A DNA stretch of 32,000 bases from Desulfocapsa sulfexigens DSM 10523 (GTDB lineage: Bacteria > Desulfobacterota > Desulfobulbia > Desulfobulbales > Desulfocapsaceae): assembly GCF_000341395.1 (NCBI RefSeq), contig NC_020304.1:3630001-3662000 (forward strand), read 5' to 3'. Made by a program: the position numbers and the translations under genes. Within the stretch, counting starts at the first letter, position 1. Every line of letters starts with the position of its first letter. The notes beneath the pieces are model-generated. The model had not been told where the DNA came from. It ran no database searches and was given only the letters and a program-made list of their open reading frames with translations. Below are positions 1,933-31,036 of the stretch, one piece after another.

Positions 1933-1944
1933 TAGAGAATTATT

Positions 1945-4545: not shown

Positions 4546-4648
4546 ACAGACTAACTCCTTATTTGGCGCTAACCAGTGTTAGCAGGTCTATTCAACTTCA
4601 GCAGACTAAAAAGGTTATCAACCCCTTCCAGCACACTATCAAACCATC

Positions 4649-11293: not shown

Positions 11294-11393
11294 GAACCTT
11301 TACACAAAATAATAATCAATGCAGTTTAGCTGCTTTTTTTAACCGAGAGACAGGATGTACTGTCTCATAAACTCTCTCCATGGAGGAAAGAAA

Positions 11394-12362
11394 ATGAACA
11401 AATTATTCGGAATTTTGTCAGTGATCTGTCTCAGTATGGTCATGACATTTGCTACAGCAGCAGATTCCCACGCAAAAAAACGTATTGTCTTTGGTGGTGG
11501 TCCTGCCGGTGGTACTTTTCAGGTAGTTGCCAACGCCATTCAGGTTTACCAACCTGTTAAAGATATGGCCGATTTCACTGTTAAAGCGCAATCCTCTGCC
11601 GGCTCTGTGGAGAACCTGCGCAAGGTAGACTCAGGTAAGTCTGATTTTGGCGTGGTTTACTCTGGACACGTGTATCTTGGCGCCAATGGCAAGATGAAAA
11701 ATGACCCCAAAAAATATGAGAATGTAATGGCTGTTGCCTATCTTTACGGCGCTCCAGCTCAGCTTGTTGTTCGTGCAGATTCCGGAATCAAATCCGTAAA
11801 AGATCTTGCAGGCAAAAAAGTAGGTGTTGGTAATGCCGGCTCCGGTGCCTTTGCCAACTGTGAACTTTTCTTCACCCATATGGGTGTGTGGGACTCAGTT
11901 GAACGTAATGCAATGGGCTATAACGATGCCGCAGCGGCATTTGGCAACAATCAACTCGATGCATTCTGGCTCTTCACTGCATTCCCATCCGGAGCAGTTA
12001 TCATGGCAGCACAGACCAATGACATCGCTCTTGTTGATCTTGGAGCAGATGCCATGGCCTCAGGATTTTACGAGAAATACCCATATTTCGCTAAACTCTC
12101 AGTTCCTGCTGGAACATACAAGGGTGTAGAGACAGCCACTCCGTCCTTTCAGGATTCTGCTCTTTGGGTAGCCAACAAAGACGTACCGGAAGACGTTGTG
12201 TACAAGCTCCTCAGCGTTATTTATACCGATGAAGGTCTCGCCCATATGGTTGGACAGAAAAAAACCTTCAAAGAGATGTCTATTGCAAGTGGTGTAAACG
12301 GAATCGTCACTCCAATGCATCCGGGTGCCATTAAATTCTGGAAAGAGAAAGGCGTGTTATAA
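11394..12362 (+). CDS. TRAP transporter solute-binding protein, TAXI family
   Basis: Start moved to the ATG at 11394, which has GGAGGAAAG 4 nt upstream; the track ORF begins at 11355. Has a signal peptide (MNKLFGILSVICLSMVMTFATAADSHA). GGGPAGGTFQVVANAI and SSAGSVENLRKVDSGKSDFGV are typical TAXI receptor motifs. Confidence 0.88.
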   Translation: MNKLFGILSVICLSMVMTFATAADSHAKKRIVFGGGPAGGTFQVVANAIQVYQPVKDMADFTVKAQSSAGSVENLRKVDSGKSDFGVVYSGHVYLGANGKMKNDPKKYENVMAVAYLYGAPAQLVVRADSGIKSVKDLAGKKVGVGNAGSGAFANCELFFTHMGVWDSVERNAMGYNDAAAAFGNNQLDAFWLFTAFPSGAVIMAAQTNDIALVDLGADAMASGFYEKYPYFAKLSVPAGTYKGVETATPSFQDSALWVANKDVPEDVVYKLLSVIYTDEGLAHMVGQKKTFKEMSIASGVNGIVTPMHPGAIKFWKEKGVL

Positions 12363-12382
12363 AACAGGCTGAGGGTTTATCA

Positions 12383-12437
12383 GGCTGAAGACTGAAGGTA
12401 AGGCATACACTCATTATCTTCTTCTTCAGCCTTTTTG
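12383..12437 (+). terminator. Intra-operon hairpin with T-run (attenuator/terminator) between the TAXI receptor and permease genes
   Basis: GGCTGAAGA (12383-12391) pairs with TCTTCAGCC (12423-12431). The stem can extend by GAAG(G)/(T)CTTC after a small internal loop. It is followed by TTTTTGCTTTT. Confidence 0.45.
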
Positions 12438-12496
12438 CTTTTACTTCCCCTTCACCTATCCACCAGCAATTCGTTCCCTAAAACGAGGTTTCCCCC

Positions 12497-14221
12497 GTGT
12501 ACGATGATCTAAAACGATTTGAACAGTTACTCTTCGACGTTTGCGCAGTAGGTCTATTGCTTTTTTATTCCTATGCTGCCGTTATATCTCCTGCTGCGAC
12601 CCAATATCATCGAGGGATATATGTCATTGTTACCTATGTACTTGTCTTTCTTCTGTACCGTTCCAAATCCATCTTCGGACGGATCATTGATTACCTGTTG
12701 ATTGTGCTTTCCATTGGAAGCATTGGCTACTGGATATTCAACTTCGAAGCCATCAATTACCGGACTGGTGCAGAGACCCCACTTGATACATGGATTGCCG
12801 TAGTTGGCGTGTTGCTTGGCATTGAACTCGCCAGACGTGTAGTCGGTGTTGTGTTTGTATTTATTGGTGTTCTTATGCTTGCCTATGGGGTATATGGAGA
12901 TTTCATGCCTGATCTTCTCTCCCACGCAGGCGATACCTTTCCTGCTCTCTGCACCTCTATCTTTTACAAGAGTGACGGTATCTTTGGCATTATGGCAAAT
13001 GTTCTCGCCACCTATATTCTGCTCTTTGTTTTCTTTGGTGCCTTTCTTGAAAAATGCGGTGCCCAGAAATTCTTTATCGATTTTCCACTTGCTGCAGTTG
13101 GTCATAAGATTGGAGGACCCGGCAAAGTGGCTGTTATCGCATCAGGTCTCTTTGGATCCATCTCGGGCAGTGCCATCGCAAATACCGTATCAACAGGTGC
13201 TTTCACCATCCCGATGATGAAAAAAGCCGGCTTCAAACCCCATATTGCCGGGGCTATTGAACCAGCCGCCTCCATCGGCGGAATGTTTATGCCACCCATT
13301 ATGGGAGCAGGTGGATTTATCATGGCGGAACTCACGGGTCTGCCTTATTCTCGTATTATGCTGGTAGCCCTCTTTCCTGCCATCATGTATTTTTTCTCCG
13401 TCTTTGTCATGGTTCATTATGAAGCAAAGAAAAATAACATTGTAGGTGAAAAATCAGAACACAGTGCCAGGGAAATTTTTATGAAAGAATGGTATTACAC
13501 AATCCCACTCATGGTAATCACCATTTTTATGCTTCTTGGATATTCACCCGGCTACTCCGCCATTCTTGGCCTTATTTCATGTATTGTTATTTCCTGGTTC
13601 CGTAAAGAAACCCGAATTGGCCCCAAAGAATTCCTGGTAGCATCAAGGAAAGGAGCAGAATCCAGTCTTAAGATCGGTGCTACTGTAGGTGTTATTGGCA
13701 TTATTATTGGTGTCCTGACCTTCAGTGGACTGGTTCTCACCTTTGCTGATATTGTTATTTCGCTCGCAGGCGGATCCCTGGTTCTCACAATCCTCCTCAT
13801 TGCCCTTGCATCCCTTGTGCTTGGTATGGGAGTACCTGTAACAGCTGCCTACCTGATCACCGCAGTGGTTGCAGTGCCGGCACTCACCCATCTTGGAGTA
13901 AACGAGCTGGCTGCACATATGATAGTGTACTGGCTTTCACAGGACTCAAATATTACACCGCCAGTTTGCATTGCAGCTTTTGCGGGAGCAACCATCGCCA
14001 AAGCAAATATGTGGAAGACAGCCTTTTCCGCCTTTAAATTCGCCAAGTTTCTGTACCTTGGCCCCTTTCTTTTTGGATTTGTACCGGGATTCTCTCTCGA
14101 TGGAAGCTCCATGGATATAATCAAGGCCTTTATTATGATTATCTTTGCTACCTGGTTGTATTCCTACTTCCTGAGTGGAATATGGATTAAATCTCTCTTT
14201 GGCAGGAAACAGGCTGCATAA
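12497..14221 (+). CDS. TRAP transporter fused permease (TAXI-type, DctQ/DctM-like fusion)
   Basis: 574 aa and highly hydrophobic throughout with many TM helices. Sits immediately downstream of the TAXI receptor. GTG start with ACGAGG about 10 nt upstream, so the start is less certain than the frame. Confidence 0.85.
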   Translation: MYDDLKRFEQLLFDVCAVGLLLFYSYAAVISPAATQYHRGIYVIVTYVLVFLLYRSKSIFGRIIDYLLIVLSIGSIGYWIFNFEAINYRTGAETPLDTWIAVVGVLLGIELARRVVGVVFVFIGVLMLAYGVYGDFMPDLLSHAGDTFPALCTSIFYKSDGIFGIMANVLATYILLFVFFGAFLEKCGAQKFFIDFPLAAVGHKIGGPGKVAVIASGLFGSISGSAIANTVSTGAFTIPMMKKAGFKPHIAGAIEPAASIGGMFMPPIMGAGGFIMAELTGLPYSRIMLVALFPAIMYFFSVFVMVHYEAKKNNIVGEKSEHSAREIFMKEWYYTIPLMVITIFMLLGYSPGYSAILGLISCIVISWFRKETRIGPKEFLVASRKGAESSLKIGATVGVIGIIIGVLTFSGLVLTFADIVISLAGGSLVLTILLIALASLVLGMGVPVTAAYLITAVVAVPALTHLGVNELAAHMIVYWLSQDSNITPPVCIAAFAGATIAKANMWKTAFSAFKFAKFLYLGPFLFGFVPGFSLDGSSMDIIKAFIMIIFATWLYSYFLSGIWIKSLFGRKQAA

Positions 14222-14250
14222 CAGTTAAAAAACAGTCCTTCCAGACTCTA

Positions 14251-14290
14251 CAGGGATCCCATTCTGTCGACACAGCGACATGGGCTCCCT
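14251..14290 (+). terminator. Hairpin downstream of the TRAP permease gene
   Basis: CAGGGATCCCAT (14251-14262) pairs with ATGGGCTCCCTG (14279-14290), 12 bp with one mismatch. An inner CTGT/ACAG mini-stem is possible. There is no U-tract. Confidence 0.3.
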
Positions 14291-14385
14291 GAAACAGTTT
14301 CTATGAAAGGTTATCGGTTTTTTCACCGTTCGTACTATCATTAACTTTCTCATCGCAACATCTCCGCCAGAAAACAGGACTACAT

Positions 14386-16674
14386 ATGCGGAAAATCGAA
14401 AACTGGATTGGAGATATGGTCATCCGGTACCGCTGGCTGTTTGTCCTTGGTCTTCTCGGTTCTGCTCTCCTGTCTGCAAACGGTATACGTTTCCTCACCT
14501 TCTCCAACGACTCACGAATGTTTTTCTCCGAGGAAAACCCTCAACTGCAAGCTTTGGAGGCACTGGAAAAAACCTACACCAAGGTGGAAAATGTCCTTTA
14601 TCTTATTGCTCCAAAGTCAGGAAACATATTTGAAAGAGAGACTCTTCAAGCCGTAGAATTCCTCACCGAACAGTCCTGGCGCCTTCCCTTCTCAAGCCGG
14701 GTCAACTCTTTGAGTAACTACCAGCACACCAGGGCTTTTGAAGATGACCTTATGGTTTCAGACCTTATAGCAGGTGCTGAATCCCTTACCGATGCAGAGA
14801 TCGCAGCAATAAAGAAGACTGCCCTCGCTCAACCCATGCTTCTCACCAGCATGATTGACAAAAAGGGTAGTGTTACCGCAATCAATGTTAATATAATCAA
14901 GCCAGACGATGGCAGTTATGACCTGCAGGAGATCAATGATGCGGCCCTGAATCTCCATCGACTTATGAAGGACACCTATCCATTTCTCGACATCTATCTC
15001 ACTGGCGGTGTCATGATAGATTCAGCCTTTGGCGATGCTCCTGCAAAAGACATGCGAACACTTATCCCCGTCATGTTTGGGCTCCTGCTCTTTCTCATTG
15101 TTATTTCCCTTCGTTCAATCATGGCAACAGTGGCCACTCTGCTTATCATCATACTGTCTACCATCACTGGTCTTGGTCTTGCCGGGTGGATGGGAATCGT
15201 GATAACACCAGCCTCTGCCAACGCGCCAATTATCATCCTGACCCTTGCGGTGGCTGACTCCATTCATATACTGGTTACCATTTTTCACCAGATGAGAAAG
15301 GGTACAGTAAAAACTGCTGCAATCAAAGAGTCCATCAGGGTAAACTTAAAACCTGTAGTGATAACGAGCGTCAGTACAGCAATAGGCTTTCTGACCATGA
15401 ATTTTTCCGATGCGCCACCCTTCAGAGATCTTGGAAATATTGTGGCCATGGGCGTTATGGCAGCTCTTATCTACTCAATTTTCTTTATGCCAGCACTTCT
15501 GGCCGTCCTTCCGTTGCGCACCAGACAAAACAGATCAGAACAACACAGGATATTTGGCCTCCTGGCTGAATTTGTTATCAGGCGCCGCACCCCTGTTTTC
15601 TGGTTTATGATAGCGATGATTCTTTTCACCAGCAGCGGAATGTCAAAAATTTATCTCAACGACGAATTTATAAAATATTTTGATACCAGCTATCCCTTTA
15701 GAGTGGCATCTGATTTTGCAGCGGAACACTTGGCAGGACTTGAAATCATAGACTGGAACCTCAATTCCGGAGAAGAAGGCGGCATCAATGACCCCAAATA
15801 CCTGGAAACAGTCGATGCTTTTGCCAACTGGTTTCGTGCTCAACCAGAAGTCAGGCACGTTTATACCATCACTGATATTATGAAACGTCTCAATCAGAAC
15901 ATGCACGGCGATGATCCGGCATGGTATAAACTTCCTCAGGAAAGGGATCTTGCTGCTCAATATTTGCTTCTCTACGAGATGAACCTGCCTTTCGGTCTTG
16001 ATCTCAACAATCGTATCAATGTGGATAAATCTGCTATCCGAATGACCGTTGCCACTCCAAATATCGGGACAGCTGCAATTCTTGACCTTGAGCGCCGCGG
16101 CCGTGAATGGCTTGATATCAACGCTCCTTCCATGACAACTTATGGATCCGGGCTTTCCATTATATTCTCCTTCATCTCAAAGCGAAATATCGATTCCATG
16201 CTGAAAGGTTCCGTTATTGCTCTGATTCTTATTTCGCTTATCATGATCGTGGCATTACGTGATATAAAACTTGGCATTTTAAGCCTGATACCTAACCTCA
16301 CTCCTGCTTTTATGGCCTTTGGTGTCTGGGGACATATGGTCGGACAAGTCGGCCTAGCCGTCTCAGTTATGATAGCCATGACTCTTGGTATTGTTGTTGA
16401 TGATACCGTTCATTTTATTTCAAAATATCAACGTGCCAGGAAAGAACATGGCATGGATGCTGAAGATGCTGTGAGATACGCTTTTAACACCGTAGGATCC
16501 GCAATCTGGGTTACTACCCTGGCCCTGGTCGGCGGCTTTGGTGTGCTTTCCTTCTCCGGATTCCAAATCAATGCCCATATGGGTTTGATGACGACAATAA
16601 CCATTATTTTCGCCATAATTCTCGATTTCTTCTTTCTCCCAACACTCCTCTTAAAACTGGAGAGTACCAGATGA
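14386..16674 (+). CDS. RND-superfamily exporter, MMPL / COG1033-like (two 6-TM bundles with sterol-sensing-domain-like topology)
   Basis: 762 aa with an internal duplication: a TM helix, a large soluble loop and five TM helices, twice. N-terminal MVIRYRWLFVLGLLGSALLS, then LTGGVMIDSAF...TLAVADSIHIL in bundle 1 and MTLGIVVDDTVHFISKY in bundle 2. Confidence 0.8.
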   Translation: MRKIENWIGDMVIRYRWLFVLGLLGSALLSANGIRFLTFSNDSRMFFSEENPQLQALEALEKTYTKVENVLYLIAPKSGNIFERETLQAVEFLTEQSWRLPFSSRVNSLSNYQHTRAFEDDLMVSDLIAGAESLTDAEIAAIKKTALAQPMLLTSMIDKKGSVTAINVNIIKPDDGSYDLQEINDAALNLHRLMKDTYPFLDIYLTGGVMIDSAFGDAPAKDMRTLIPVMFGLLLFLIVISLRSIMATVATLLIIILSTITGLGLAGWMGIVITPASANAPIIILTLAVADSIHILVTIFHQMRKGTVKTAAIKESIRVNLKPVVITSVSTAIGFLTMNFSDAPPFRDLGNIVAMGVMAALIYSIFFMPALLAVLPLRTRQNRSEQHRIFGLLAEFVIRRRTPVFWFMIAMILFTSSGMSKIYLNDEFIKYFDTSYPFRVASDFAAEHLAGLEIIDWNLNSGEEGGINDPKYLETVDAFANWFRAQPEVRHVYTITDIMKRLNQNMHGDDPAWYKLPQERDLAAQYLLLYEMNLPFGLDLNNRINVDKSAIRMTVATPNIGTAAILDLERRGREWLDINAPSMTTYGSGLSIIFSFISKRNIDSMLKGSVIALILISLIMIVALRDIKLGILSLIPNLTPAFMAFGVWGHMVGQVGLAVSVMIAMTLGIVVDDTVHFISKYQRARKEHGMDAEDAVRYAFNTVGSAIWVTTLALVGGFGVLSFSGFQINAHMGLMTTITIIFAIILDFFFLPTLLLKLESTR

Positions 16675-20319: not shown

Positions 20320-20856
20320 TTAGAACCAGAATTCCGGATATTGCCTGATTCTTGATATATTATTAACCAGCAGAGCGATGATAAGCATGACCACAGCTCC
20401 CGATGCCACAGGTACTAGGACATAAAAGTATCCTAAGGCATGGATGTTATCGCTTCCGATAACTGCAATCAGGGCGGTGGCACCTCCCGGCGGATGCAGA
20501 GTACAGGTTGCGTGCATAACAGCAATAGCTGTAGCCACAGCAAAGGCTGCAGCTAACCACATCTCACCATGGAATGTCTGGTAGCAAAAGACCCCTATTA
20601 TAGCCGACAAAATATGGCCACCCAAAAGATTACGAGGCTGGGCCAAAGGGCTTTTGATAGCCCCATAAATGAGCACCGCGGAAGCACCAAAGGAACCGAT
20701 TATCATTATGAAATCGCTTTCAGGGAAAAAATTATAATGGAGGAGGGCAACTGCTGCTATCCCCAGAAAGGCCCCGAACCATGACCAACATATTTCGGAT
20801 AGTCTCGGTCGGGGGGGGCTTTTGGTTATCCCCTTCATTTTTTGAAAGTAAGTCAT
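20320..20856 (-). CDS. HPP-family integral membrane protein
   Basis: Start moved to the ATG at 20856 (AGAGGAAAAAA upstream) because the longer track ORF overlaps the CBS gene. Has 4-5 TM helices and the diagnostic LHPPGGATALI motif. Confidence 0.85.
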   Translation of the reverse strand: MTYFQKMKGITKSPPRPRLSEICWSWFGAFLGIAAVALLHYNFFPESDFIMIIGSFGASAVLIYGAIKSPLAQPRNLLGGHILSAIIGVFCYQTFHGEMWLAAAFAVATAIAVMHATCTLHPPGGATALIAVIGSDNIHALGYFYVLVPVASGAVVMLIIALLVNNISRIRQYPEFWF

Positions 20857-21579: not shown

Positions 21580-22845
21580 CTACTTCAATATTTTAGCTTT
21601 CGCTTCTTTGTATTTGAGAAGAACAGCAAGAGCAGGTTTTATGAGCATAGTCACCACCAAAGCACCTGTAGCCAAAACTCCCAGAGTAATAAGAATCTCA
21701 TTACTGGTCGGGGCGTAATCAACAACCTCACCCATTGGCGATGGCACAAAACCAGGGATAATAAGACCAAAACCTTTTTCAATCCAGATACCGGTGAACA
21801 GGCTTATCGCTGCTACCATGAGGTAACGGGGATTGCCTTTAGTCGGATCAAAGGCAAAAAGCAGTGTCCCTATAATGTTTAGACTAATAGCCGTCCATAT
21901 CCATGGCACAAGAGAATTGTGTCCTTCAAGCCCGAAGAAAAGGTATTGAGCCGAAAGGCTGTGATGGGTAAATGTATAGAATTCCTTAAATACTTCAGAA
22001 AAAAGCATCAGCAGATTAATGACTGCCGAAACAACGATGATTCTTTTTAATTTTAAGAAAATCTGTTCGTCAACCGAATATTTCGTGTTCTGTTTTATGG
22101 CAATGAGCACCACCATAATTACCGCAGGGCCTGCAGCAAATGCCGAAGCCAGAAAGCGCGGACCGAGCAATGGGTTGTTCCAGAAAGGGCGAGCCGGCAA
22201 TCCCTGGTAGAGAAAAGCTGTGGTCATGTGGATGGAAACAGCCCAGAAGATGGACAGGAAAACAAAGGGTTTATACTTCCAGCCGACAGGTTCTCTGTTA
22301 TGATAGTTGCAATAAAGAATGTAGAGAGGTACCAGGCTGTTTAAAGCTAAATAACCATTCAAAACAAGCATATCCCAGGTAAGAATAGATGAAGGCCAGT
22401 TAAACAGGCCTATTCCAGGAATCATGTGCCACACCTTCAACGGCCCGCCCATATCCACAGTGATAAACATCAGGCACATGACCAGAGCACCGACAGCGAC
22501 ACATTCACCTATAATAACGACTTCATGCAGATCTTTATCTTTCAGCATATAAGCTGGCAGGATCAGCATGACTGCAGCCGCCGCAACACCAACAAAAAAA
22601 GTAAAGTTGGAGATATAAAGGCCCCAACTGACAATATCCGACATACCGGTGATAATGAGGCCTTCCTGAAACTGCCTGGTATAGGAAAATGCACCCACGG
22701 CCATAACTGCAAGTAGAGCAATAATGTAAATTTTGAAACCTATCCCCCCGGACAGCGACCATCGCATACAGTCCGAGATAAATGAACGTCCTTGATTGGG
22801 GTTCGTAGTCATCGTTTTTTCCTTAGCGTCTCTTCGTACAGACAT
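21580..22845 (-). CDS. NrfD/PsrC-family polytopic membrane subunit (putative quinol-interacting anchor)
   Basis: 421 aa with about 10 TM helices, no Cys motifs and no haem motifs. Sits directly downstream of a Tat-exported 4-cluster Fe-S subunit, as in the Nrf/Psr/Ttr/Qrc/ACIII families. An alternative start is the ATG at 22812, which has a better SD (AAGGAAAAAACG). Confidence 0.8.
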   Translation of the reverse strand: MSVRRDAKEKTMTTNPNQGRSFISDCMRWSLSGGIGFKIYIIALLAVMAVGAFSYTRQFQEGLIITGMSDIVSWGLYISNFTFFVGVAAAAVMLILPAYMLKDKDLHEVVIIGECVAVGALVMCLMFITVDMGGPLKVWHMIPGIGLFNWPSSILTWDMLVLNGYLALNSLVPLYILYCNYHNREPVGWKYKPFVFLSIFWAVSIHMTTAFLYQGLPARPFWNNPLLGPRFLASAFAAGPAVIMVVLIAIKQNTKYSVDEQIFLKLKRIIVVSAVINLLMLFSEVFKEFYTFTHHSLSAQYLFFGLEGHNSLVPWIWTAISLNIIGTLLFAFDPTKGNPRYLMVAAISLFTGIWIEKGFGLIIPGFVPSPMGEVVDYAPTSNEILITLGVLATGALVVTMLIKPALAVLLKYKEAKAKILK

Positions 22846-22871
22846 TTTTTGTCTCTTTTAACCCGTTGTTG

Positions 22872-23831
22872 TCAATCCATGAAATACCAGAATTTTGGAT
22901 CAGTCCCCAATTCTTCCTTAAAGCGGAAAACCTTCTTGTTTTTCAGGACAAAACGGATTTCGCTGTCTGGATCAAGAAGATTGCCAAAAACCCTGGAACC
23001 TGTTGGACAGGCCTCGGCACAGGCCGGCAGCTTGCCCTGACGGGTTCTCTGCACGCAAAAAGTGCATTTTTCCATGACGCCTTTCATCCGCATGCGATTA
23101 CCGAGATAATGCTGTTTTCTATTTATCTCCTCTTCCGGCACTTCAGGCGTACCCCAGTTAAAACGGCGCCCCCAATATGGACAAGCTGCCAGGCAATAGC
23201 GGCAACCGATACACCAGTCGTAATCCACAACAACGATGCCATCCGGTTCTCGCCAGGTAGCTTTGGTCGGGCAGGCTTTAATACACGGGGCATTTTCACA
23301 ATGGTAGCATTGGACTCCCATGTAAAACTTATCAGCAACCGGCACTTCATGATGATATTTCCCATCTCCTGAAGTTGGATCAAGTTGACCGGAATCCATT
23401 TCAAAAAGACGGATATATTGGGTCTTTGATTTACGGTCAAGATTGTTTTCTTGAACACATGCCTCAACGCAATCCATATAGCCCTTGCAACGGGAGATAT
23501 TAAAGGCATAGCCGTAAAGGACATTTTCACGTGGCTCTGCGTTTGACATTTGAATGTCTCTGTCGTCCTTCATTTTGGCAAGTCTTACAAGGCGGGCAAC
23601 GGTTTCATCTTTTTCTTTCTGACTCATCAGCCTGTAATTCTTTTTAAAATACTCTTCCCACTTGAGTCCCATTTCTTCGGTATTTCCAAGCGATCCGCAA
23701 CCTCCGGTCACAAGTCCTGCCGAACCAGCTGCAGCGGCAATGGACAGACCCTTTATGAAAGATCTACGGCTGATTTTCTTTTCACCGTTTTCTGGTTTCA
23801 TCATCCCTTCTTTTTTTTTGCTGGAATTCAT
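22872..23831 (-). CDS. Tat-exported ferredoxin-type Fe-S subunit (NrfC/PsrB/QrcC-like)
   Basis: Twin-arginine signal SRRSFIKGLSIAAAAGSAG. Cys motifs are CKGYMDCVEAC (second Cys replaced by Tyr), CYHCENAPCIKACP, CIGCRYCLAACP and CTFC...CAEACP. A G8 run serves as the SD region 1 nt upstream of the ATG. Confidence 0.88.
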   Translation of the reverse strand: MNSSKKKEGMMKPENGEKKISRRSFIKGLSIAAAAGSAGLVTGGCGSLGNTEEMGLKWEEYFKKNYRLMSQKEKDETVARLVRLAKMKDDRDIQMSNAEPRENVLYGYAFNISRCKGYMDCVEACVQENNLDRKSKTQYIRLFEMDSGQLDPTSGDGKYHHEVPVADKFYMGVQCYHCENAPCIKACPTKATWREPDGIVVVDYDWCIGCRYCLAACPYWGRRFNWGTPEVPEEEINRKQHYLGNRMRMKGVMEKCTFCVQRTRQGKLPACAEACPTGSRVFGNLLDPDSEIRFVLKNKKVFRFKEELGTDPKFWYFMD

Positions 23832-23839
23832 ACCCCCCC

Positions 23840-24457
23840 CTACTTGTCTAATGGCAGCGAGTATGTCACCGGCATTTTTTTTTCAAAGGCAGGGGAATGT
23901 GGACTATGACAACTTGTACAATTGCGCACCACCCTTTCACCAGCCCAGTATGCCTCACGTTTACCATGAGCGCCGCCTAACCAGTCACGCTTCTGGCGAA
24001 AATGACACTGACCACAGAGTTGATAACTGTGATCAAAATCTATCTTCTTGCCCTCGGCATCAGAAAGAGAATCTCGGTCGTTTTCATCGTGACATTCTAT
24101 ACAAGACAGCTTGTCGCCTCCCCTTCCGTGGTTGATTTCGATATCACTATGGGTAAAAAGAGCACCGTCTCTTATCAGCACATTCTTCTCAGTATGGCAG
24201 ACGCTGCATCGAAACTTTGTTATGGAATCCTTGCGGGCAAGTACTCTAAAAGTACCTCCCTGGTAGGATTCTTTTGCACGAACCGTCTTAACCGGCAGTT
24301 CATAGGCTGTTTCAATTTTCATGTTATTAAATGGCTCTTCTGCGGCATTAATGCGGTCCATCACAGAATTTTCAGAAGCCATAACAAACGGACATGAAAG
24401 AAGGAACGTTCCCAGCAAAAGAAAAAACAGGCTAGAACGCAAAAATATTTTTTTCAT
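23840..24457 (-). CDS. Periplasmic tetrahaem cytochrome c (paired-CXXCH type)
   Basis: Start set at the ATG at 24457 (MKKIFLRSSLFFLLLGTFLLSCPFVMA signal peptide); the track start at 24541 overlaps the upstream gene. Has four CXXCH motifs: CSVCH, CIECH, CGQCH, CTSCH. The last pair sits in the CGQCH...W.GGAHG...CTSCHSPH doubled-CXXCH arrangement. Confidence 0.85.
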   Translation of the reverse strand: MKKIFLRSSLFFLLLGTFLLSCPFVMASENSVMDRINAAEEPFNNMKIETAYELPVKTVRAKESYQGGTFRVLARKDSITKFRCSVCHTEKNVLIRDGALFTHSDIEINHGRGGDKLSCIECHDENDRDSLSDAEGKKIDFDHSYQLCGQCHFRQKRDWLGGAHGKREAYWAGERVVRNCTSCHSPHSPAFEKKMPVTYSLPLDK

Positions 24458-24474
24458 AACTGTTCTCGTTCTGA

Positions 24475-25128
24475 TTAGTTGTTTCTGATAAATTCTTCTC
24501 TGGGTTCGGTAGCTATCATGGGCACATGACATTGTCGGCAATTGCCGCGGGAGGCGTGCTCAACCCGAATCTCTGCCACTGCGGCATTGCCTGTATGACA
24601 GGCAATACAGTCTTCCCTGAGCTGCAGACTGTGGATAATCGGTGGTGGTGATCCACCCATCTCAGACCTTCCCAGCGGAGGAGGATTTATTGACTGCCAG
24701 TCGGTTTCCACAAAAAGCTCCTCAGTCAACCGTGGAACATGGCATTGAAAACAATTCTCATATTCAGGATGAGGCGTAACGGGAGCATAGGCTTCCTGAG
24801 TGATGTCGTATCCTCCTTTGCCGTGGCAGGAGAGGCATTTCAGGGTGTCCCCGGAAAAAGAGGTCGGGACATCATGGGGAACCCGCGGCGGTGAACCGGG
24901 ATACTGACGGAGTTGGTAATACGTATTTAAGGTTCGCTTGCCGTCTGTCCCGGTCATGGCAGGCAGTGGAGTTTCGTTAAACCTGTTGAAGATTTTTTCG
25001 CCGTCTGAATCAAAGCCCTGGGCAATACCAGGCGCTGCATTTGCATACAGCACCAGAGAGGCTCCGGTTAAGCAGATAGCGGCAAAACCTGTAACAACTC
25101 TGCCGAGTACTGTATCTGCTTTTTTCAT
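24475..25128 (-). CDS. napB: NapB-like cytochrome c, tandem duplicated (tetrahaem)
   Basis: The start ATG at 25128 overlaps the napA stop (TAATG), and GGAGAAAG lies upstream. Sec signal MKKADTVLGRVVTGFAAICLTGASLVLYANA. Contains two successive NapB-type units: SPPRVPH...CLSCH...HPEYENCFQCHVP and SPPPIIH...CIACH...HASRGNCRQCHVP. Confidence 0.8.
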   Translation of the reverse strand: MKKADTVLGRVVTGFAAICLTGASLVLYANAAPGIAQGFDSDGEKIFNRFNETPLPAMTGTDGKRTLNTYYQLRQYPGSPPRVPHDVPTSFSGDTLKCLSCHGKGGYDITQEAYAPVTPHPEYENCFQCHVPRLTEELFVETDWQSINPPPLGRSEMGGSPPPIIHSLQLREDCIACHTGNAAVAEIRVEHASRGNCRQCHVPMIATEPREEFIRNN

Positions 25129-27446
25129 TATGCTTTCTCCAGACGGACTGCACATTTTTTATAATCAGGCTGCTTTGATATCGGGCAAAAAGCATCCAGG
25201 GTCAATTCGTTAATCTTGTAGGATTCATCAAAAAACGGCACAAAGACCGTACCCCGGGGAGGCACACCGCGCCCGTTTATGGAAGCTTTCATGGTCACCG
25301 AGCCTCGCCGTGAAATAATTTTCACCTTTTCGCCGTTCACCACACCTATATCAGCTGCATCCTCGGGGTTCATTTCCACATAGGATTCAGGCATGGCATT
25401 ATGGAGAACAGGAATCCGCCGGGTCATGGACCCGGTATGCCAGTGCTCGATGACCCGGCCGGTATTGAGCCAGAAATTGTATTCATTGTCCGGTGATTCA
25501 GCGGCAGGCTCATAGGGTCGGGCCCATATCCATGCTTTTCCGTCTTTTCTGCCGTAGAAATCAAATTCTGTTCCCGGCTTGCAGGCGGGATCATGCTGGG
25601 TGTTAAAGCGCCAGCGAGTCTCCTTGCCGTTGACAAAAGGCCATTGTACTCCGGGGCGTTCTCTCAGCACCTTATAGGGGGCCATGTTGTGTTTCGGGCC
25701 ATCATGGAAGAGCCTGTACTCCTCCCATATTTTACCGATATACTCATCTTCACTCCAGGGGAACTGCTTCTGGAAACCAAGTCTCCTGGCAACCTCGATA
25801 AGCTGCCAGGTATCGGACATGGTGTCGCCAGGGCCCGGAACAATCCGGTCAAAATGAGCAGTACGACGTTCAGCGTTACCAAACATACCCTCCTGCTCAA
25901 TCCACATGGTTGCCGGCAGAATGACATCGGCGACATCAGTGGTCGGAGTGGGATAGACTTCTGAAACAACGATAAAGCGTTCATCTTTCAAAACGCCATT
26001 ACGATACCGATTCAGATTTGGCATGGTAATCATAGGGTTGGTCACCTGTATCCACATAAACTTGATGTCGCCACGATCCAGGGCGCGGAACATCTCCACC
26101 GTATGATAGGTGGGCTTGGGATCGATATTTGTTACCGGCACATCCCAGATCCTGGCAGCCATTTCCCTGTCGTGCTCATTCGTAACGACCCCATGAGGTA
26201 AGGCGTGGGTCAGAGTTCCTACTTCGCGGACAGTGCCACAGGCACTGGGTTGGCCAGTGAGAGAGAAGGGACTGTTGCCGGGGGTAGATATCTTGCCGGT
26301 GAGCAGATGGATATTGTAAACGAGGTTCTGGATCCAGGTTCCCCGCACATGCTGGTTCATTCCCATACACCAAAAAGAGGTGACTTTCTTGGTAGGGTCA
26401 CCGTACAGGGATGCTAGGTATTTTATATCTTTGGCAGATACCCCGGAGATTTTTTCCGCCTTTTCAGGTGTATAGTCCTGCAAGAACGTCTTGTACTCTT
26501 CAAAAGTGATATTTTCAGGTGCATCCGTGAAACTGAAATGATCTTCAGTGCCATAGCCGATATTGGTTTTGCCTTTATGAAAGGTGGTATGCTTGTTGAC
26601 GAAATCCCAGTTTACCCAGTTGTTACGGATGATTTCGTAACAGATGGCATTGGCAACAGCAAGATCTGTGCTGGGTTTGAAGAGAATCGATTTGTCGGCC
26701 GCCTGGCTGGTTCTGGTGGTACGGGTGGCAAAGTCGATAATAGTGACATTGTTTTTGCGCTTACGGCTGGCCAGCATCCTGGAAAAAAGAACAGGATGCA
26801 TTTCCGCCATATTATTACCCCAGGTAACAAAAACATCAGCGTGCTCAATGTCTTCATAACAGCCCATAGGTTCATCAATACCAAAGGAAGTCATAAAACC
26901 GGTTACAGCGCTCGACATACAAAGCCTGGCATTAGCTTCAACATTGTTGGTGCCGAGGCAGCCCTTGAAGAGCTTGGAGGCCACATAGCCATCCGGAATG
27001 GTCCATTGGCCTGAACCATACATGGCAACTGAATCTTTACCGTGCTTTGCAATGGTTTCCTTGACCTTGTCGGCAATGACATCCAGTGCTTCAGAAATGG
27101 GAACTTCAACCATTTTCCCATTCTTGCGAATCTGGGCTTTTTTAATGCGGTCTTTGCCATACAGAGCCTGAACGGAATGAAATCCTTTCACGCAACATAA
27201 CCCTTTATTTACACTGCAATTTGGATCACCTTTAACTGCAACGGCACGGTCTCCGGACACACCGACCAATACACCGCACCCTGTGCCGCAAAAACGGCAG
27301 GGAGCTTTTTGCCAGGTTATTTTACCCGATGCATCTTCCTGTTTCTGCCAACCAGCAAAACTAATACCAGGGAAAATTGATCCGGCAGCTGCAATGGCAC
27401 TGCTGGCTGCGGCTGACTTAATGAATGATCGTCTGTTTAGCTTCAT
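25128..27446 (-). CDS. napA: Periplasmic nitrate reductase catalytic subunit NapA (Mo-bisPGD, 4Fe-4S)
   Basis: Tat signal MKLNRRSFIKSAAASSAIAAAGS. WQKAPCRFCGTGCGVLVGV...GDPNCSVNKGLCCVKG is the N-terminal 4Fe-4S motif. GSGQWTIPDGYVASKLFKG...NARLCMSSAVTGFMTSFGIDEPMGCYEDIE aligns closely with my memory of E. coli NapA, including the Mo-ligand Cys. 772 aa, i.e. the short 'monomeric-type' length. Confidence 0.93.
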   Translation of the reverse strand: MKLNRRSFIKSAAASSAIAAAGSIFPGISFAGWQKQEDASGKITWQKAPCRFCGTGCGVLVGVSGDRAVAVKGDPNCSVNKGLCCVKGFHSVQALYGKDRIKKAQIRKNGKMVEVPISEALDVIADKVKETIAKHGKDSVAMYGSGQWTIPDGYVASKLFKGCLGTNNVEANARLCMSSAVTGFMTSFGIDEPMGCYEDIEHADVFVTWGNNMAEMHPVLFSRMLASRKRKNNVTIIDFATRTTRTSQAADKSILFKPSTDLAVANAICYEIIRNNWVNWDFVNKHTTFHKGKTNIGYGTEDHFSFTDAPENITFEEYKTFLQDYTPEKAEKISGVSAKDIKYLASLYGDPTKKVTSFWCMGMNQHVRGTWIQNLVYNIHLLTGKISTPGNSPFSLTGQPSACGTVREVGTLTHALPHGVVTNEHDREMAARIWDVPVTNIDPKPTYHTVEMFRALDRGDIKFMWIQVTNPMITMPNLNRYRNGVLKDERFIVVSEVYPTPTTDVADVILPATMWIEQEGMFGNAERRTAHFDRIVPGPGDTMSDTWQLIEVARRLGFQKQFPWSEDEYIGKIWEEYRLFHDGPKHNMAPYKVLRERPGVQWPFVNGKETRWRFNTQHDPACKPGTEFDFYGRKDGKAWIWARPYEPAAESPDNEYNFWLNTGRVIEHWHTGSMTRRIPVLHNAMPESYVEMNPEDAADIGVVNGEKVKIISRRGSVTMKASINGRGVPPRGTVFVPFFDESYKINELTLDAFCPISKQPDYKKCAVRLEKA

Positions 27447-27468
27447 CTTCTTCTTTTCCTCTCTCTAT

Positions 27469-27708
27469 TTATTGTTCAACTTTAGCATTATGACCAAAAG
27501 TCATGCTCAGTGATTGTAGTGAAGGCAGGCTCTTAAGCGTTTTATGCAGTTTTTTTTCGGTTTCTTCATCAGGAGTCTCCGTCACGAGAATCACTACCTC
27601 TGCATTGTCCGATGGAATAATTTCGCAATAATCAATAGCGGACAGATCCAAACATAATTGATCCATGGCACCCTTATTGGGCAACGCCAGATAACTTAAA
27701 ATTGGCAT
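27469..27708 (-). CDS. napD: NapD-like Tat proofreading chaperone
   Basis: Start moved to the ATG at 27708 (AAAAAGGAGAAAGA upstream); the track start is a GTG at 27747. 79 aa, immediately upstream of napA. The pattern ...CEIIPSDNAEVVILVTETPDEE...LKSLPSLQSLSMTFGH fits the NapD beta-alpha-beta fold pattern. The family is poorly conserved, so the call relies largely on position and size. Confidence 0.65.
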   Translation of the reverse strand: MPILSYLALPNKGAMDQLCLDLSAIDYCEIIPSDNAEVVILVTETPDEETEKKLHKTLKSLPSLQSLSMTFGHNAKVEQ

Positions 27709-27810: not shown

Positions 27811-27826
27811 AGCAACATTCATGCCA
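27811..27826 (-). promoter_or_regulatory. Candidate sigma54 (-24/-12) promoter reading into napD-napA
   Basis: The minus strand reads TGGCATGAATGTTGCT, against the consensus TGGCAC-N5-TTGCW with correct GG-to-GC spacing. It lies about 100 nt upstream of the napD ATG (27708). Confidence 0.55.
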
Positions 27827-28109: not shown

Positions 28110-28340
28110 GTCGCCAGACAAGCAAAAATGTGGCAACAGACGGATAAATTGTCCAAATACAGTTGCCATCATTAAGTCATCCTCTCAGGATATGAAAAAA
28201 AGATGCACAGCCAATTCAATATCCATATTTGTCACTTTTGGTTATTGTAGGTTTATATGAGTTTTTTTCTACCATTCATTGGTGTTATCGGACCTGAAGG
28301 TGTAATCAGTAACAACAACCAAAAGGGGGCTCCAGTAAGC

Positions 28341-29273
28341 ATGAAAACAGTTTCAAAATTCCTCACCACAAAAGACGTGGCCCAGCTTCTCAATGTAAAC
28401 GAGAAGATGATCTACTCCCTTGTTAACGACAAGGGGCTCCCGGCAACAAAAGTTACTGGAAAATGGTTATTTCCAAGAAGACTTGTGGAAGATTGGCTCG
28501 ATTCACATATCCTTAACTTTAGGTGCTCACACGACACCCTCTCATCCAATAACGGCCTCTTACTTCTTGCCGGAAGCGACGACCCGCTTTTCCAGAAAAC
28601 GCTTTCCCTTTTTCATAAAAAATACAGTGATACTATTGCCTTTTTTGCAAATCAGGGAAGCATGGGTGGTCTCACCAGCCTGAGAAGAGGTCTCTGCCAC
28701 ATCGGTGTTTGCCATCTCCTCGAAAATGAAGAGAATGAGTACAACTTCAGTTTTGCCGAGCAGGAGCTGGACAAGCCCCCGGTTTTTGTCAATTTCAGTA
28801 AACGTGAACAGGGTATCCTCATCCAAAAAGGAAACCCTAAGGGTATTCAATCAATCAATGATTTCTCCAGAAATGACGTCAGAATCGTTAACCGCCCCTT
28901 AAGCACAGGAACAAGACTGCTCCTCGACTATGAGATTTCCAGGTCAGATATCGCTTCAGCTGATATTGATGGCTACGATGTAGAACTCGCACGCCACATA
29001 GATGCTGGGCTTGAGGTTTTGTCAGGAAGGGCAGATGCAGCCCCTGCCATCCGCGCTGTTGCTGGCATGCTGGGGCTTGATTTTATCCCTCTGCGCTGGG
29101 AACGATTTGACTTGCTAATAAATCGAGAACGATTCTTTGAAAAAGGTATTCAACGCTTCATCAGCCTTCTGCATGAAAGGGAGTTCCGTCAATTGGCCAA
29201 TTCCTTTGAAGGCTATGACGTATCGCTTTGTGGAAAAATGCTTTTCCCGGACAATCTTAACAACGAGGAATGA
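28341..29273 (+). CDS. Transcriptional regulator: excisionase/MerR-type HTH fused to a cytoplasmic periplasmic-binding-protein-like (oxyanion-binding, COG1910-like) domain
   Basis: Start set at the ATG at 28341 (AAAAGGGGG upstream); the track start at 28257 sits inside a promoter-like AT-rich stretch. HTH: FLTTKDVAQLLNVNEKMIYSLVNDKGLPATKVTGKWLFPRRLVEDWL. C-terminal domain: LLLAGSDDP...GSMGGLTSLRRGLCHIGVCHL...REQGILIQKGNPKGIQSINDF...VNRPLSTGTRLLLD...GRADAAPAIRAVAGMLGLDFIPL. No signal peptide. Confidence 0.8.
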   Translation: MKTVSKFLTTKDVAQLLNVNEKMIYSLVNDKGLPATKVTGKWLFPRRLVEDWLDSHILNFRCSHDTLSSNNGLLLLAGSDDPLFQKTLSLFHKKYSDTIAFFANQGSMGGLTSLRRGLCHIGVCHLLENEENEYNFSFAEQELDKPPVFVNFSKREQGILIQKGNPKGIQSINDFSRNDVRIVNRPLSTGTRLLLDYEISRSDIASADIDGYDVELARHIDAGLEVLSGRADAAPAIRAVAGMLGLDFIPLRWERFDLLINRERFFEKGIQRFISLLHEREFRQLANSFEGYDVSLCGKMLFPDNLNNEE

Positions 29274-29275
29274 AA

Positions 29276-30172
29276 ATGGTATCACGAATCACAGCATTTG
29301 CAGGGGTCTTAGTTCTCTTATTTGCTATTAACTCAAACAGTATGGCTGAGGACAAGATTTTAAAGATGTCCACCACTACAAGTACCCAGTCATCAGGGCT
29401 TTTAGATATCCTTTTACCTGAATTTGAAAAAGCAACAGGCATAAAAGTGAAGGTTATCGCCAAAGGAACAGGGGCAGCCATACGTGATGGTGAGGATGGT
29501 AATGTGGATATTATCTTTGTCCATGCCAAGGGACGTGAGCTTGCCTTTGTTAAAGATGGCTTCGGCACTGAACGCTTTCCGGTAATGCATAATGATTTTG
29601 TGCTGTTAGGTTCATCAAAAGATCCGGCAGGGATTAAAGATTTTGCTGATATCGCAACTGTTTTTAAAACCATTGCTGAGAAAAAAGCGACCTTCGTCTC
29701 CAGGGGAGACGATTCAGGGACCCATACTAAAGAGCAGAAGCTCTGGGCTGACAGTGGCATTACAATGGTTGAAAAGACCCAAAGCATCGTAAAAAAAGGC
29801 CAGGAGACAAAAATTACTTCCAACTTTCCAGCAGACTCGGCAAGCTGGTATCTTTCCATTGGCCAGGGAATGGGTAAAGTACTCACCTACGCTGAAGAAA
29901 AACAGGCCTACACCCTCTCTGATCGGGGAACTTATATCAAATACAAATACGGCAAAACCCCCGCTCTTGAACTTGATATCCTGAGCCAGGGTGATACAAG
30001 ACTTGCAAACCCTTATGGTATCATCCCGGTTAACCCGGCAAAACACCCCCATGTAAAAAACGATCTGGCCATGGCTTTTGTTGAATGGATCACCGGACCA
30101 GAAGGACAAAAACTTATCGGTGACTATCGTCTCGAAGGAAAACAGCTTTTCTTCCCCGATGCCATCAAATAG
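29276..30172 (+). CDS. tupA: Tungstate/molybdate ABC transporter substrate-binding protein TupA
   Basis: Signal peptide plus the TupA signature MSTTTSTQSSGLLDILLPEFEK (TTTS motif), then VHAKGRELAFV and RGDDSGTH. Two in-frame ATGs exist: 29270 overlaps the regulator stop, while 29276 has GAGGA 6 nt upstream and is preferred. Confidence 0.88.
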   Translation: MVSRITAFAGVLVLLFAINSNSMAEDKILKMSTTTSTQSSGLLDILLPEFEKATGIKVKVIAKGTGAAIRDGEDGNVDIIFVHAKGRELAFVKDGFGTERFPVMHNDFVLLGSSKDPAGIKDFADIATVFKTIAEKKATFVSRGDDSGTHTKEQKLWADSGITMVEKTQSIVKKGQETKITSNFPADSASWYLSIGQGMGKVLTYAEEKQAYTLSDRGTYIKYKYGKTPALELDILSQGDTRLANPYGIIPVNPAKHPHVKNDLAMAFVEWITGPEGQKLIGDYRLEGKQLFFPDAIK

Positions 30173-30331: not shown

Positions 30332-31036
30332 ATGGATCTCCTCTTTGACAGTATACAATCTGCAATTGCCCTTCTTCTGACGCGTGACCCTGAGTTACTC
30401 AACATAGTCTGGGTATCCGTGAAAGTCAGTGCTTTATCCACGGTTATAGCCTCACTTGCAGGTATTCCCGGAGGATTCCTCATTGCCTATTCCGAGTTTT
30501 ATGGAAAACGGCTGCTCCTTACTTGCCTTAACACCTTACTGGCACTTCCTACGGTGGTTATAGGTCTTCTGGTCTACTCCTTTATTTCACGGCGTGGAAT
30601 ACTCGGACCAATGGAACTTCTCTATACCCAGAAAGCCATAATTATCGGCCAGGTCATTTTAATTGTCCCCCTTATCTGCTCCTTAACCATTGCAGCTATC
30701 AGCAGGATAGATACCCGCTATCGAAAGACAGCTCTCACCCTTGGGGCAACACAAAAGCAGATGGCCCTGGTGATCATTAAAGAAGCCCGTTATGGCATTG
30801 GCGCTGCTGTTATTGCTGCATTTGGTAGAGTCATAGCCGAAGTTGGAATCAGCATGATGCTTGGAGGAAATGCCAAAGGCTTTACCCGCACCATGACTAC
30901 AGCCATGGCCCTTGAATATGACAAAGGTGAATTTGTCCTGTCCGTGGCCCTTGGTCTTACACTCATGAGCATAGCTTTTGCAGTAAATATGCTCTTCCAT
31001 TTTTTTCAGGGAAGGACCAGGGTCGATGCTGTATAA
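30332..31036 (+). CDS. tupB: Tungstate/molybdate ABC transporter permease TupB
   Basis: 234 aa with 5-6 TM helices and an ABC permease EAA-like loop (KTALTLGATQKQMALVIIKEARYGI). Position between tupA and the ATPase gene. Confidence 0.85.
   Translation: MDLLFDSIQSAIALLLTRDPELLNIVWVSVKVSALSTVIASLAGIPGGFLIAYSEFYGKRLLLTCLNTLLALPTVVIGLLVYSFISRRGILGPMELLYTQKAIIIGQVILIVPLICSLTIAAISRIDTRYRKTALTLGATQKQMALVIIKEARYGIGAAVIAAFGRVIAEVGISMMLGGNAKGFTRTMTTAMALEYDKGEFVLSVALGLTLMSIAFAVNMLFHFFQGRTRVDAV

Follow-up and report, generated by a model that had tools for sequence, protein, structure and literature searches.

A conserved six-gene nap cluster of Desulfocapsa sulfexigens with a candidate tetrahaem/Fe-S/NrfD-family route from the menaquinol pool

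The 32,000-nucleotide (nt) stretch of the Desulfocapsa sulfexigens DSM 10523 genome analysed here (the window) contains six closely packed minus-strand open reading frames (ORFs) at positions 21580-27708, corresponding to the UWK_03284-03289 region. They encode a NapD-like chaperone, the periplasmic nitrate reductase (Nap) catalytic subunit NapA, two tetrahaem cytochromes, an iron-sulfur (Fe-S) protein exported by twin-arginine translocation (Tat) and an NrfD-family membrane protein. An earlier note on this DNA had named these six products, and it proved right in every case. Gene starts were refined with homologues and with the genes called on a public contig of 99-100% identity (L082). The resulting features, listed in the direction of transcription together with the short names used below, are:

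27811..27826, minus strand: predicted sigma-54-type promoter-like element, TGGCAT-N5-TTGCT, 118 nt upstream of the napD ATG
27469-27708, minus strand: napD-like chaperone gene, 79 amino acids (Pfam NapD)
25128-27446, minus strand: napA, Tat-exported catalytic subunit, 772 amino acids (NCBIfam equivalogs, Pfam)
24475-25128, minus strand: tetrahaem 'double NapB' (napB'), 217 amino acids (four CXXCH motifs, match to the NapB profile)
23840-24457, minus strand: second tetrahaem c-type cytochrome (cyt), UWK_03286, 205 amino acids (four CXXCH motifs)
22872-23831, minus strand: Tat-exported four-cluster Fe-S subunit, DsrO-like ('DsrOh', O), 319 amino acids (Tat motif, Pfam Fer4_11)
21580-22812, minus strand: NrfD-family membrane subunit, DsrP-like ('DsrPh', P), 410 amino acids (Pfam NrfD, hydropathy)

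From napD to the NrfD-family gene, the intergenic gaps measure 22, -1, 17, 8 and 59 nt, with the start of the double NapB gene overlapping the napA stop codon by 1 nt. Two of the starts have alternatives: the Fe-S protein would be 309 residues long from a later methionine, and for the NrfD-family protein, whose homologues begin at 22812, a 421-residue start at 22845 is likewise open. With the ATG at 22845 the 59-nt gap shrinks to 26 nt, and the range from a 1-nt overlap to 26 nt described in the earlier note is recovered. No terminator-like site was found between the six genes, and this, together with gaps of -1 to 59 nt, makes their spacing operon-like. We therefore regard a single operon as fairly likely, a judgement that we hold jointly with the broader explanation developed below.

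A motif scan combined with Pfam searches of the other large ORFs revealed no further multihaem, NapC/NirT, NapG or NapH genes in the 32-kb window, and no membrane protein with CX3CP motifs besides FrdB. Window scans also failed to detect Psr, Phs, Ttr or Dsr catalytic subunits in or adjoining the cluster. The lack of NapC and NapGH, which the earlier note had singled out, thus extends across the window: NapA, NapD and a NapB-type cytochrome are all encoded in the locus, and a quinol dehydrogenase of the NapC/NirT or NapGH type is not.

By the equivalog models, the catalytic subunit qualifies as a true NapA. It scores 990.5 against NF010055 (cut-off 904) and 960.4 against TIGR01706 (cut-off 930.55), contains the Pfam domains TAT_signal, Molybdop_Fe4S4, Molybdopterin and Molydop_binding, and displays a Tat motif (RRSFI) at residues 5-9 as well as the motif ARLCMSSA, which we take to contain the cysteine ligand of molybdenum (Mo). 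Escherichia coli NapA (2nya), at 812 bits, and the C. necator NapAB structure 3ml1 are its best matches among solved structures. The heterodimeric NapAB type, represented by E. coli, C. necator and R. sphaeroides, reaches 812-759 bits, whereas the monomeric NapA of Desulfovibrio desulfuricans falls below it at 588 bits; the closer relationship to the heterodimeric type fits the presence of a NapB-like partner. With 772 residues, the protein is shorter than the canonical 831-residue NapA encoded in a related locus (L019), to which it is 50% identical. Pairwise identities are too alike to single out a separate clade of module-linked NapAs (50% to the canonical L019 protein versus 49-54% to distant module-linked NapAs), and the shortness that these NapAs have in common is only suggestive of one. 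The chaperone matches Pfam NapD at 29.4 bits, barely above the cut-off of 28. Its gene lies directly upstream of napA in 25 scanned related loci (47-82% identity), and the gene called in this place in Desulfolithobacter dissulfuricans is likewise NapD-like.

The first cytochrome contains four CXXCH motifs arranged as two PPxxPH...CXXCH...CXXCH units behind an N-terminal signal peptide or anchor. A profile of its family matches the NapB structures 3ml1_B, 1ogy_B and 1jni_A (E=1.2e-6 to 5e-4), with residues 72-146 aligning to complete dihaem NapB structures (3ml1_B at E=1.2e-6), and the C-terminal half repeats the first unit (score 72 versus 24.9 +/- 4.9 for shuffles, z=9.6). This internal repeat and the NapB match point to a 'double NapB', that is, a NapB-like cytochrome apparently duplicated into a tetrahaem protein. 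The identical protein is labelled 'nitrate reductase cytochrome c-type subunit' at NCBI, and an Omnitrophota homologue (L067) shows the same duplicated PPxxPH...CXXCH...CXXCH pattern and a Pfam NapB score of 52 bits.

The second tetrahaem cytochrome, UWK_03286, is annotated as a 'hypothetical protein'; both cytochromes match proteins of D. sulfexigens DSM 10523 at 100% identity, in agreement with the Desulfobulbales-type genome that the earlier note had supposed. In addition to its four CXXCH motifs it has four histidines (H103, H110, H164 and H187) that are invariant among 32 homologues from several phyla, a pattern consistent with four bis-histidine (bis-His) haems. Its N-terminal hydrophobic segment resembles a cleavable signal (VMA-SE) in the Desulfobulbia clade and an anchor in distant homologues, and the family comprises about 905 clusters at 50% identity (E<=1e-10). 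Profile and single-sequence searches of solved structures returned no specific relative for it, only generic multihaem motif matches, and NrfH was not among its profile matches; Pfam Cytochrom_NNT (NapC/NirT) matched neither of the two cytochromes at E<=0.01. AlphaFold2 models of both cytochromes, computed from 49-sequence alignments of homologues 64-86% identical, were discarded at mean pLDDT (predicted local distance difference test) values of 40.8 and 41.9.

The Fe-S protein begins with the Tat motif SRRSFI and belongs to Pfam Fer4_11 and related families. It has four cysteine groups, the first of which consists of three cysteines only (CX5CX3C). All 15 cluster cysteines are retained in at least 75 of 76 homologues, and the second cysteine of group I is replaced by Tyr118 in the Desulfobulbia clade, with a cysteine at this position in 27 of the 76, all distant homologues. 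A possible complement of one [3Fe-4S] and three [4Fe-4S] clusters, like that of QrcC, is suggested by the composition of the first group. The Tat signal ends in VTGGC, and its cysteine, Cys45, might form part of a lipobox. The membrane protein (Pfam NrfD, 112.7 bits) shows about 10 hydrophobic segments by hydropathy. Across 79 homologues, 104 of its positions are at least 97% conserved, and the conserved polar residues include D120, H129, D147, H195, R208, R219, E273, K276, E277, E345 and K346, a set compatible with ideas about ion pathways in NrfD-like proteins, without proving them (PMC8076601).

The NCBIfam models place these two subunits closest to DsrO and DsrP. For the Fe-S protein, DsrO is the best model but remains just under its cut-off (190.6 versus 200), well ahead of QrcC (141.9 versus 400) and NrfC (128.2 versus 377.6). 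For the membrane protein, DsrP exceeds its cut-off (396.7 versus 350), whereas QrcD (36.3 versus 570), NrfD (28.7 versus 347.6) and TtrC (21 versus 314) lie far below theirs; the NrfB equivalog is likewise missed (22.7 versus 166.6). Among solved structures, the closest relative of the membrane subunit is ActC (6f0k_C, E=2e-7), with ActB among the best for the Fe-S subunit. The earlier note had likened this back end to NrfBCD, Psr/Ttr, Qrc or alternative complex III; the scores correct that description, indicating instead a DsrO/DsrP-like clade that belongs to the 'DsrOhPh-tetrahaem' family (see below), not to NrfCD, Psr or Qrc.

The match to DsrP, in turn, is not evidence of a Dsr function. 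The same model (NF045798, cut-off 350) scores 379-420 bits on homologues from L042, L056, L059, L077 and L080, which derive from metagenome-assembled genomes (MAGs) assigned to Opitutus, Omnitrophota, Geoalkalibacter and Epsilonproteobacteria, and no recurrent dsr-like neighbours were found in the loci matching it; the DsrO model reaches 167-184 bits on distant homologues of the module. The DsrP equivalog thus over-reaches, and the automated annotation 'DsrMKJOP subunit DsrP' is systematically misleading for the P family of this module. The Prokaryotic Genome Annotation Pipeline (PGAP) indeed names close homologues of the membrane subunit 'DsrP'.

Evidence for a functional bond between the module and Nap comes from its conservation. 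A scan with the membrane subunit, restricted to one genome per species, yielded 80 loci (numbered with the prefix L), in which all six proteins were then placed by tblastn. In 36 of them the P subunit is at least 67% identical, and the gene order napD-napA-napB'-cyt-O-P is the same wherever the contig extends: 25 loci are complete, 10 are truncated by contig ends but consistent, in L032 just a piece of the P gene is present, and no locus conflicts with the order. These loci represent Desulfocapsa, Desulfobulbaceae, Desulfurivibrionaceae and Desulfoarculaceae MAGs, Desulfurivibrio sp. D14AmB and one MAG labelled Rokuibacteriota. The isolate D. dissulfuricans GF1 possesses the same six-gene cluster, with a P subunit (P0056) 83% identical to that of D. 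sulfexigens. Together with the 25 complete loci of the scan this makes 26 other species-level genomes with the same six-gene order, at 42-93% amino acid identity per protein. No close homologue without nap was encountered among loci with a P subunit at least 67% identical and a sufficiently long contig. The flanking genes, by contrast, are not conserved in the related loci: near the cluster, a search for conserved regulators or nrfA found just two kinds of recurrent gene, for a sensor kinase (7 of 37 loci) and for a response regulator (likewise 7 of 37). The six genes therefore behave as a self-contained conserved unit, and the recurrence of their order in 26 genomes amid varying flanks argues that the juxtaposition is not due to chance.

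Outside this clade, the linkage persists in rearranged form. The order cyt-O-P-napA-napB', at about 50% identity, occurs in L041, L045, L053, L056, L067, L075 and the truncated L063, which belong to Planctomycetales, Omnitrophota and other MAGs. L059 is organized as napA-napB'-cyt-O-P-octahaem, and other combinations of napA, an octahaem gene and the module occur in L071 and L057. In 8 loci the module directly adjoins a gene for an epsilon-Hao-like octahaem cytochrome (Pfam PF13447), which ties it to periplasmic N-oxide reductases more generally. A neighbour-joining tree built from the P subunits has nap-linked loci throughout the Desulfobulbia clade and in two further lineages outside it. From these neighbourhoods, the module looks like a portable coupler between quinones and periplasmic cytochromes that was repeatedly wired to N-oxide reductases. 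Separately, 29 distant loci from Verrucomicrobia, Omnitrophota and Planctomycetes (among L037-L067 and L075) contain downstream of P a gene for a protein of about 140-165 residues (for instance L056 14684-15181 and L042 11334-11861); distant versions of it share 39-62% identity. No Pfam family matches this protein, neither the window nor the Desulfobulbia clade contains it, and it may represent a fourth component of the distant branch.

Taken together, these observations make it fairly likely, in our estimation, that the locus encodes an entire periplasmic nitrate reductase system as one operon, with the tetrahaem/Fe-S/NrfD-family module replacing NapC or NapGH as the menaquinol dehydrogenase. 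Under this model, menaquinol would be oxidized at the haem-free membrane subunit DsrPh, the presumed site of quinol binding, and the Fe-S clusters of the Tat-exported DsrOh would relay the electrons to the bis-His tetrahaem cytochrome, from which they would reach the tetrahaem double NapB and finally the [4Fe-4S] cluster and the Mo-bis-MGD (bis-molybdopterin guanine dinucleotide) cofactor of NapA, where nitrate would be reduced to nitrite in the periplasm; NapD would chaperone the export of NapA. What the sequences establish is the gene identities, cofactor motifs, export signals, close packing and conserved linkage; that the proteins form a complex, which way the electrons run, that quinol donates them and whether protons are moved are matters of inference. 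The membrane subunit might also render periplasmic nitrate reduction electrogenic, unlike NapC, a possibility raised by its being a 10-transmembrane NrfD/DsrP-type protein with many invariant intramembrane polar residues. The earlier note's proposal fared unevenly as a whole: its observation was confirmed and its interpretation supported in part, comparative genomics (the synteny in 26 genomes, the rearranged linkage and the octahaem neighbours) giving strong support to the module as a candidate route between Nap and the quinone pool. More tentatively, and with somewhat less than even confidence, we suggest that the tetrahaem/DsrO-like/DsrP-like module constitutes, beside NapC/NrfH and NapGH/NrfBCD, a third and widespread class of quinol dehydrogenase that serves N-oxide reductases of the periplasm, both Nap and epsilon-Hao-type enzymes.

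The cluster is flanked by two gene groups, identified by Pfam searches on the near-identical contig L082:

20873-21484, minus strand: CBS-domain protein (Pfam CBS)
20320-20838, minus strand: HPP-family membrane protein (PF04982, TM_HPP)
28257-29273, plus strand: regulator with HTH_17 and PBP_like domains
29270-30172, plus strand: periplasmic binding protein
30332-31036, plus strand: ATP-binding cassette (ABC) permease

The 95-nt gap between the NrfD-family gene and the CBS gene contains no terminator-like hairpin, and the CBS/HPP pair is possibly co-transcribed with the nap cluster. The pair is not conserved in the related loci, the exception being an HPP gene upstream of napD in L027. HPP proteins reportedly act as nitrite transporters in cyanobacteria and plastids, and the HPP-family protein here is a possible nitrite transporter with a species-specific accessory role. 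On the other side, an ABC ATPase gene follows the permease on L082, and the divergent regulator, binding-protein and permease genes are found only in D. sulfexigens and near-identical contigs. They probably encode molybdate/tungstate uptake with a TunR-like regulator, an assignment that we presume from domain architecture, and this transporter plausibly supplies Mo for NapA. Between the two groups, the TGGCAT-N5-TTGCT element upstream of napD may function as a sigma-54-type promoter; of 27 related loci, 6 have its generalized form, TGGYAY-N5-YTGCW, in the 400 nt preceding napD, compared with a background frequency of 0.002 per 400 nt.

Elsewhere in the window, a candidate ORF at 4610-4912 (plus strand), between genes for a flavin adenine dinucleotide (FAD)-binding protein and an M1 aminopeptidase, encodes a hydrophobic segment followed by CVECH and CLFCH and could specify a membrane-anchored dihaem cytochrome. 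The window starts, at 4-2703 (plus strand), with the genes for the flavoprotein and Fe-S subunits of a fumarate reductase/succinate dehydrogenase (the UWK_03265-03267 region according to the genome paper), and this Fe-S subunit holds the only other CX3CP motifs found.

Several considerations weigh against assigning the module to menaquinol-dependent nitrate respiration. NrfD-family modules can run either way, Qrc being one that reduces menaquinone. A napC, nrfH or napGH may be present elsewhere in the D. sulfexigens genome, and two Nap types can coexist, given that L018 and L019 have a gene for a canonical 831-residue NapA immediately downstream of the six-gene cluster, which in L019 forms part of a canonical napF-napD-napA-napG-napH set (11256-16274). 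Nor is the module specific to Nap, since no nap gene lies within 10 kb of the verrucomicrobial homologues, which are neighboured by NapC/NirT-like multihaem, porin-like and multihaem genes. Both D. sulfexigens and D. dissulfuricans are listed as nitrate-negative in their use of electron acceptors (PMC9751629, Table 1). In D. dissulfuricans GF1 (AP024233.1), the tetrahaem gene (L081 8471-8988) is frameshifted near 8713-8716, with residues 32-113 and 113-204 in different frames and the rest of the cluster intact. This is either a pseudogene or a sequencing error, and it may explain the nitrate-negative phenotype of that strain. The gene is intact in D. sulfexigens, which is nitrate-negative nonetheless, so the operon may be cryptic, condition-specific, or used for scavenging or assimilation. 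A 'nitrate reductase' in a D. dissulfuricans proteome table, GF1_13610 (737 residues), is not the 772-residue NapA of the cluster and lends it no expression support.

Three other explanations can be set against a dedicated menaquinol dehydrogenase for Nap. The module could be a reversible, Qrc-like link between the cytochrome pool and menaquinone, bypassing or feeding the quinone pool while NapA and its double NapB are supplied mainly by periplasmic donors such as hydrogenase, formate dehydrogenase or sulfur-oxidizing cytochromes. Desulfobulbales have rich periplasmic cytochrome networks, QrcC is the second-best model for the Fe-S subunit (142 bits), the three-cysteine first group recalls the [3Fe-4S]-containing QrcC (clusters in PMC8076601, Table 1), and the verrucomicrobial modules, placed beside porin and multihaem genes and not beside reductases, suggest a general coupler of quinone and cytochrome pools. 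Yet QrcA- and QrcB-type subunits are missing and QrcD scores 36 against a cut-off of 570, and the tight, conserved co-linearity with napA and napB' implies a dedicated partnership. Electron transfer from menaquinol to nitrate is, moreover, strongly downhill, and all characterized Nap systems draw on quinol. We consider a Qrc-like role unlikely. Even less can be said for a sulfur unit, polysulfide-reductase-like or a spare DsrOP, that merely adjoins nap. The above-cut-off DsrP score and the PGAP naming of close homologues speak for it; the same model score in non-dsr loci, the survival of the nap linkage through rearrangement in other phyla, the lack of any Psr/Phs/Ttr molybdoenzyme or of dsrM, dsrK or dsrJ, with NapA as the sole catalytic subunit of the unit, and the location of the canonical dsrPJKM elsewhere in the genome (UWK_00238-00242; PMC3739170) speak against it and make it very improbable.

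The third explanation concerns the physiological role and not the electron path, and it is therefore compatible with the module serving as the menaquinol dehydrogenase of Nap. In D. sulfexigens the system could be non-respiratory, serving nitrate scavenging or assimilation or redox balancing, or staying cryptic under laboratory conditions; nitrite produced by NapA would then be imported by the HPP protein and reduced by a cytoplasmic NAD(P)H nitrite reductase. The nitrate-negative phenotypes of the two isolates (PMC9751629) accord with such a role, as do the CBS and HPP genes directly downstream with no intervening terminator, the assimilatory NADPH-nitrite reductase (UWK_03259) and hydroxylamine reductase (UWK_03258) genes located about 25 genes away (PMC3739170), and the sigma-54-type promoter-like element, sigma-54 being typical of nitrogen-regulated genes. 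However, the CBS/HPP pair does not share the conservation of the six genes, a three-subunit membrane quinol dehydrogenase would be costly for assimilation alone, and other lineages pair the module with epsilon-Hao-like enzymes typical of respiratory ammonification. A non-respiratory or cryptic role appears improbable to us, to about the same degree as the Qrc-like one.

Two solutions for quinol oxidation are generally cited for Nap, NapC and NapGH, with CymA as a stand-in for NapC. If the assignment proposed here is true, a conserved NrfD-family solution would be a third type, carried by at least 27 Desulfobulbia species and, in rearranged form, by Planctomycetota and Omnitrophota MAGs. The open literature yielded no report of nap beside an NrfD/DsrP-type gene in this arrangement. 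The nearest cases are Thermosulfurimonas and Dissulfuribacter, in which napMADGH is accompanied by separate NrfD-containing loci beside the NapGH-containing operon (PMC5276818, PMC9676032); D. alkaliphilus has a different nap operon, napAGHD (PMC5516251), as do the cable bacteria, napFDDAGHB (bioRxiv 2020.02.22.960823). The 2013 genome paper listed UWK_03284 among 'polysulfide reductases' possibly reducing sulfur and discussed no Nap system (PMC3739170). The module itself has already been described: a 2026 study in BMC Genomics (PMC13047784) reported the DsrOhPh-tetrahaem locus in cable bacteria, some Desulfobulbales, and Gamma- and Betaproteobacteria as a clade separate from canonical DsrP, and named D. 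dissulfuricans as a carrier. That study left the function open, speculating on a link from quinone to the periplasm or a 'candidate ACIII' (alternative complex III); its text mentions Nap once, in another context, and never beside this locus. The question raised in the earlier note, whether this synteny had been described before, thus has a divided answer: the module had been, and its connection to Nap is, as far as the open literature goes, new here.

This connection, if it holds, would give a testable role to an orphan complex that the 2026 cable-bacteria study could not place, and would suggest a function for the cable-bacterial version as well, for which a link between the quinone pool and periplasmic cytochromes is suspected. 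A systematic misannotation would come to light, through the DsrP model and 'polysulfide reductase' labels on nap-linked proteins, and it would again have to be asked whether nitrate reduction in the periplasm can conserve energy directly. Sulfur disproportionators, Desulfocapsa among them, would become possible unrecognized nitrate reducers in sediments. This interest is tempered by the comparative nature of the evidence and by the nitrate-negative phenotypes.

Compared with canonical Nap systems (napFDAGHBC, napEDABC, napAGHBFLD and napCMADGH), the cluster shares NapD, a Tat-exported NapA and a NapB-type cytochrome. It differs in having no NapC or NapGH in the locus, a NapB duplicated into a tetrahaem protein, a short NapA and an NrfD-family anchor. 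Its back end is shared with the DsrOhPh-tetrahaem loci (PMC13047784), which combine the same bis-His tetrahaem cytochrome with DsrO and DsrP homologues apart from dsrTMKJ. In true cable bacteria, however, the DsrOhPh locus includes an extra TMH1 gene and does not lie beside napFDDAGHB, whereas here the module is situated inside a nap operon. DsrMKJOP is the closest sequence family, with DsrP above and DsrO, though the best model, under the cut-off; by contrast with that complex, no DsrM, DsrK or trihaem DsrJ is encoded in the window or the related loci, and the partners are a tetrahaem cytochrome and Nap.

More distant systems resemble the module in architecture or in logic. The Cbc4 complex of Geobacter sulfurreducens has an identical three-subunit architecture with a bis-His tetrahaem cytochrome: it consists of the tetrahaem CbcS, whose haem core is reportedly NapC/NirT-like, CbcT with four [4Fe-4S] clusters and the membrane protein CbcU. 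The role proposed for it is that of a menaquinol:cytochrome c oxidoreductase, in the context of extracellular electron transfer and not of nitrate (bioRxiv 10.1101/2025.04.14.648717). A homologue of the module itself is present in a Desulfuromonadales MAG, Geoalkalibacter (L077). Alternative complex III (ActABCDEF) is likewise an oxidoreductase between quinol and a periplasmic acceptor built on NrfD-family subunits, but the similarity is remote, as the locus has a single NrfD-family gene and no ActF, its Fe-S subunit lacks a molybdopterin-like domain, and neither a pentahaem ActA nor a monohaem ActE is encoded in the window. Qrc is set apart by QrcC and QrcD scores below the cut-offs and by the lack of QrcA and QrcB genes. 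A functional parallel is NrfBCD, in which quinol electrons travel by the same logic, through an NrfD-family subunit without haem, a Tat-exported Fe-S protein with four clusters and a periplasmic multihaem cytochrome, to a soluble N-oxide reductase of the periplasm. The two sets of subunits are not orthologous, with the NrfB, NrfC and NrfD models all below their cut-offs, and the pentahaem cytochrome and NrfA acceptor of that system have their counterparts here in a tetrahaem cytochrome and NapA with the double NapB. By this analogy, the D. sulfexigens cluster would work like NrfBCD without being a member of it.

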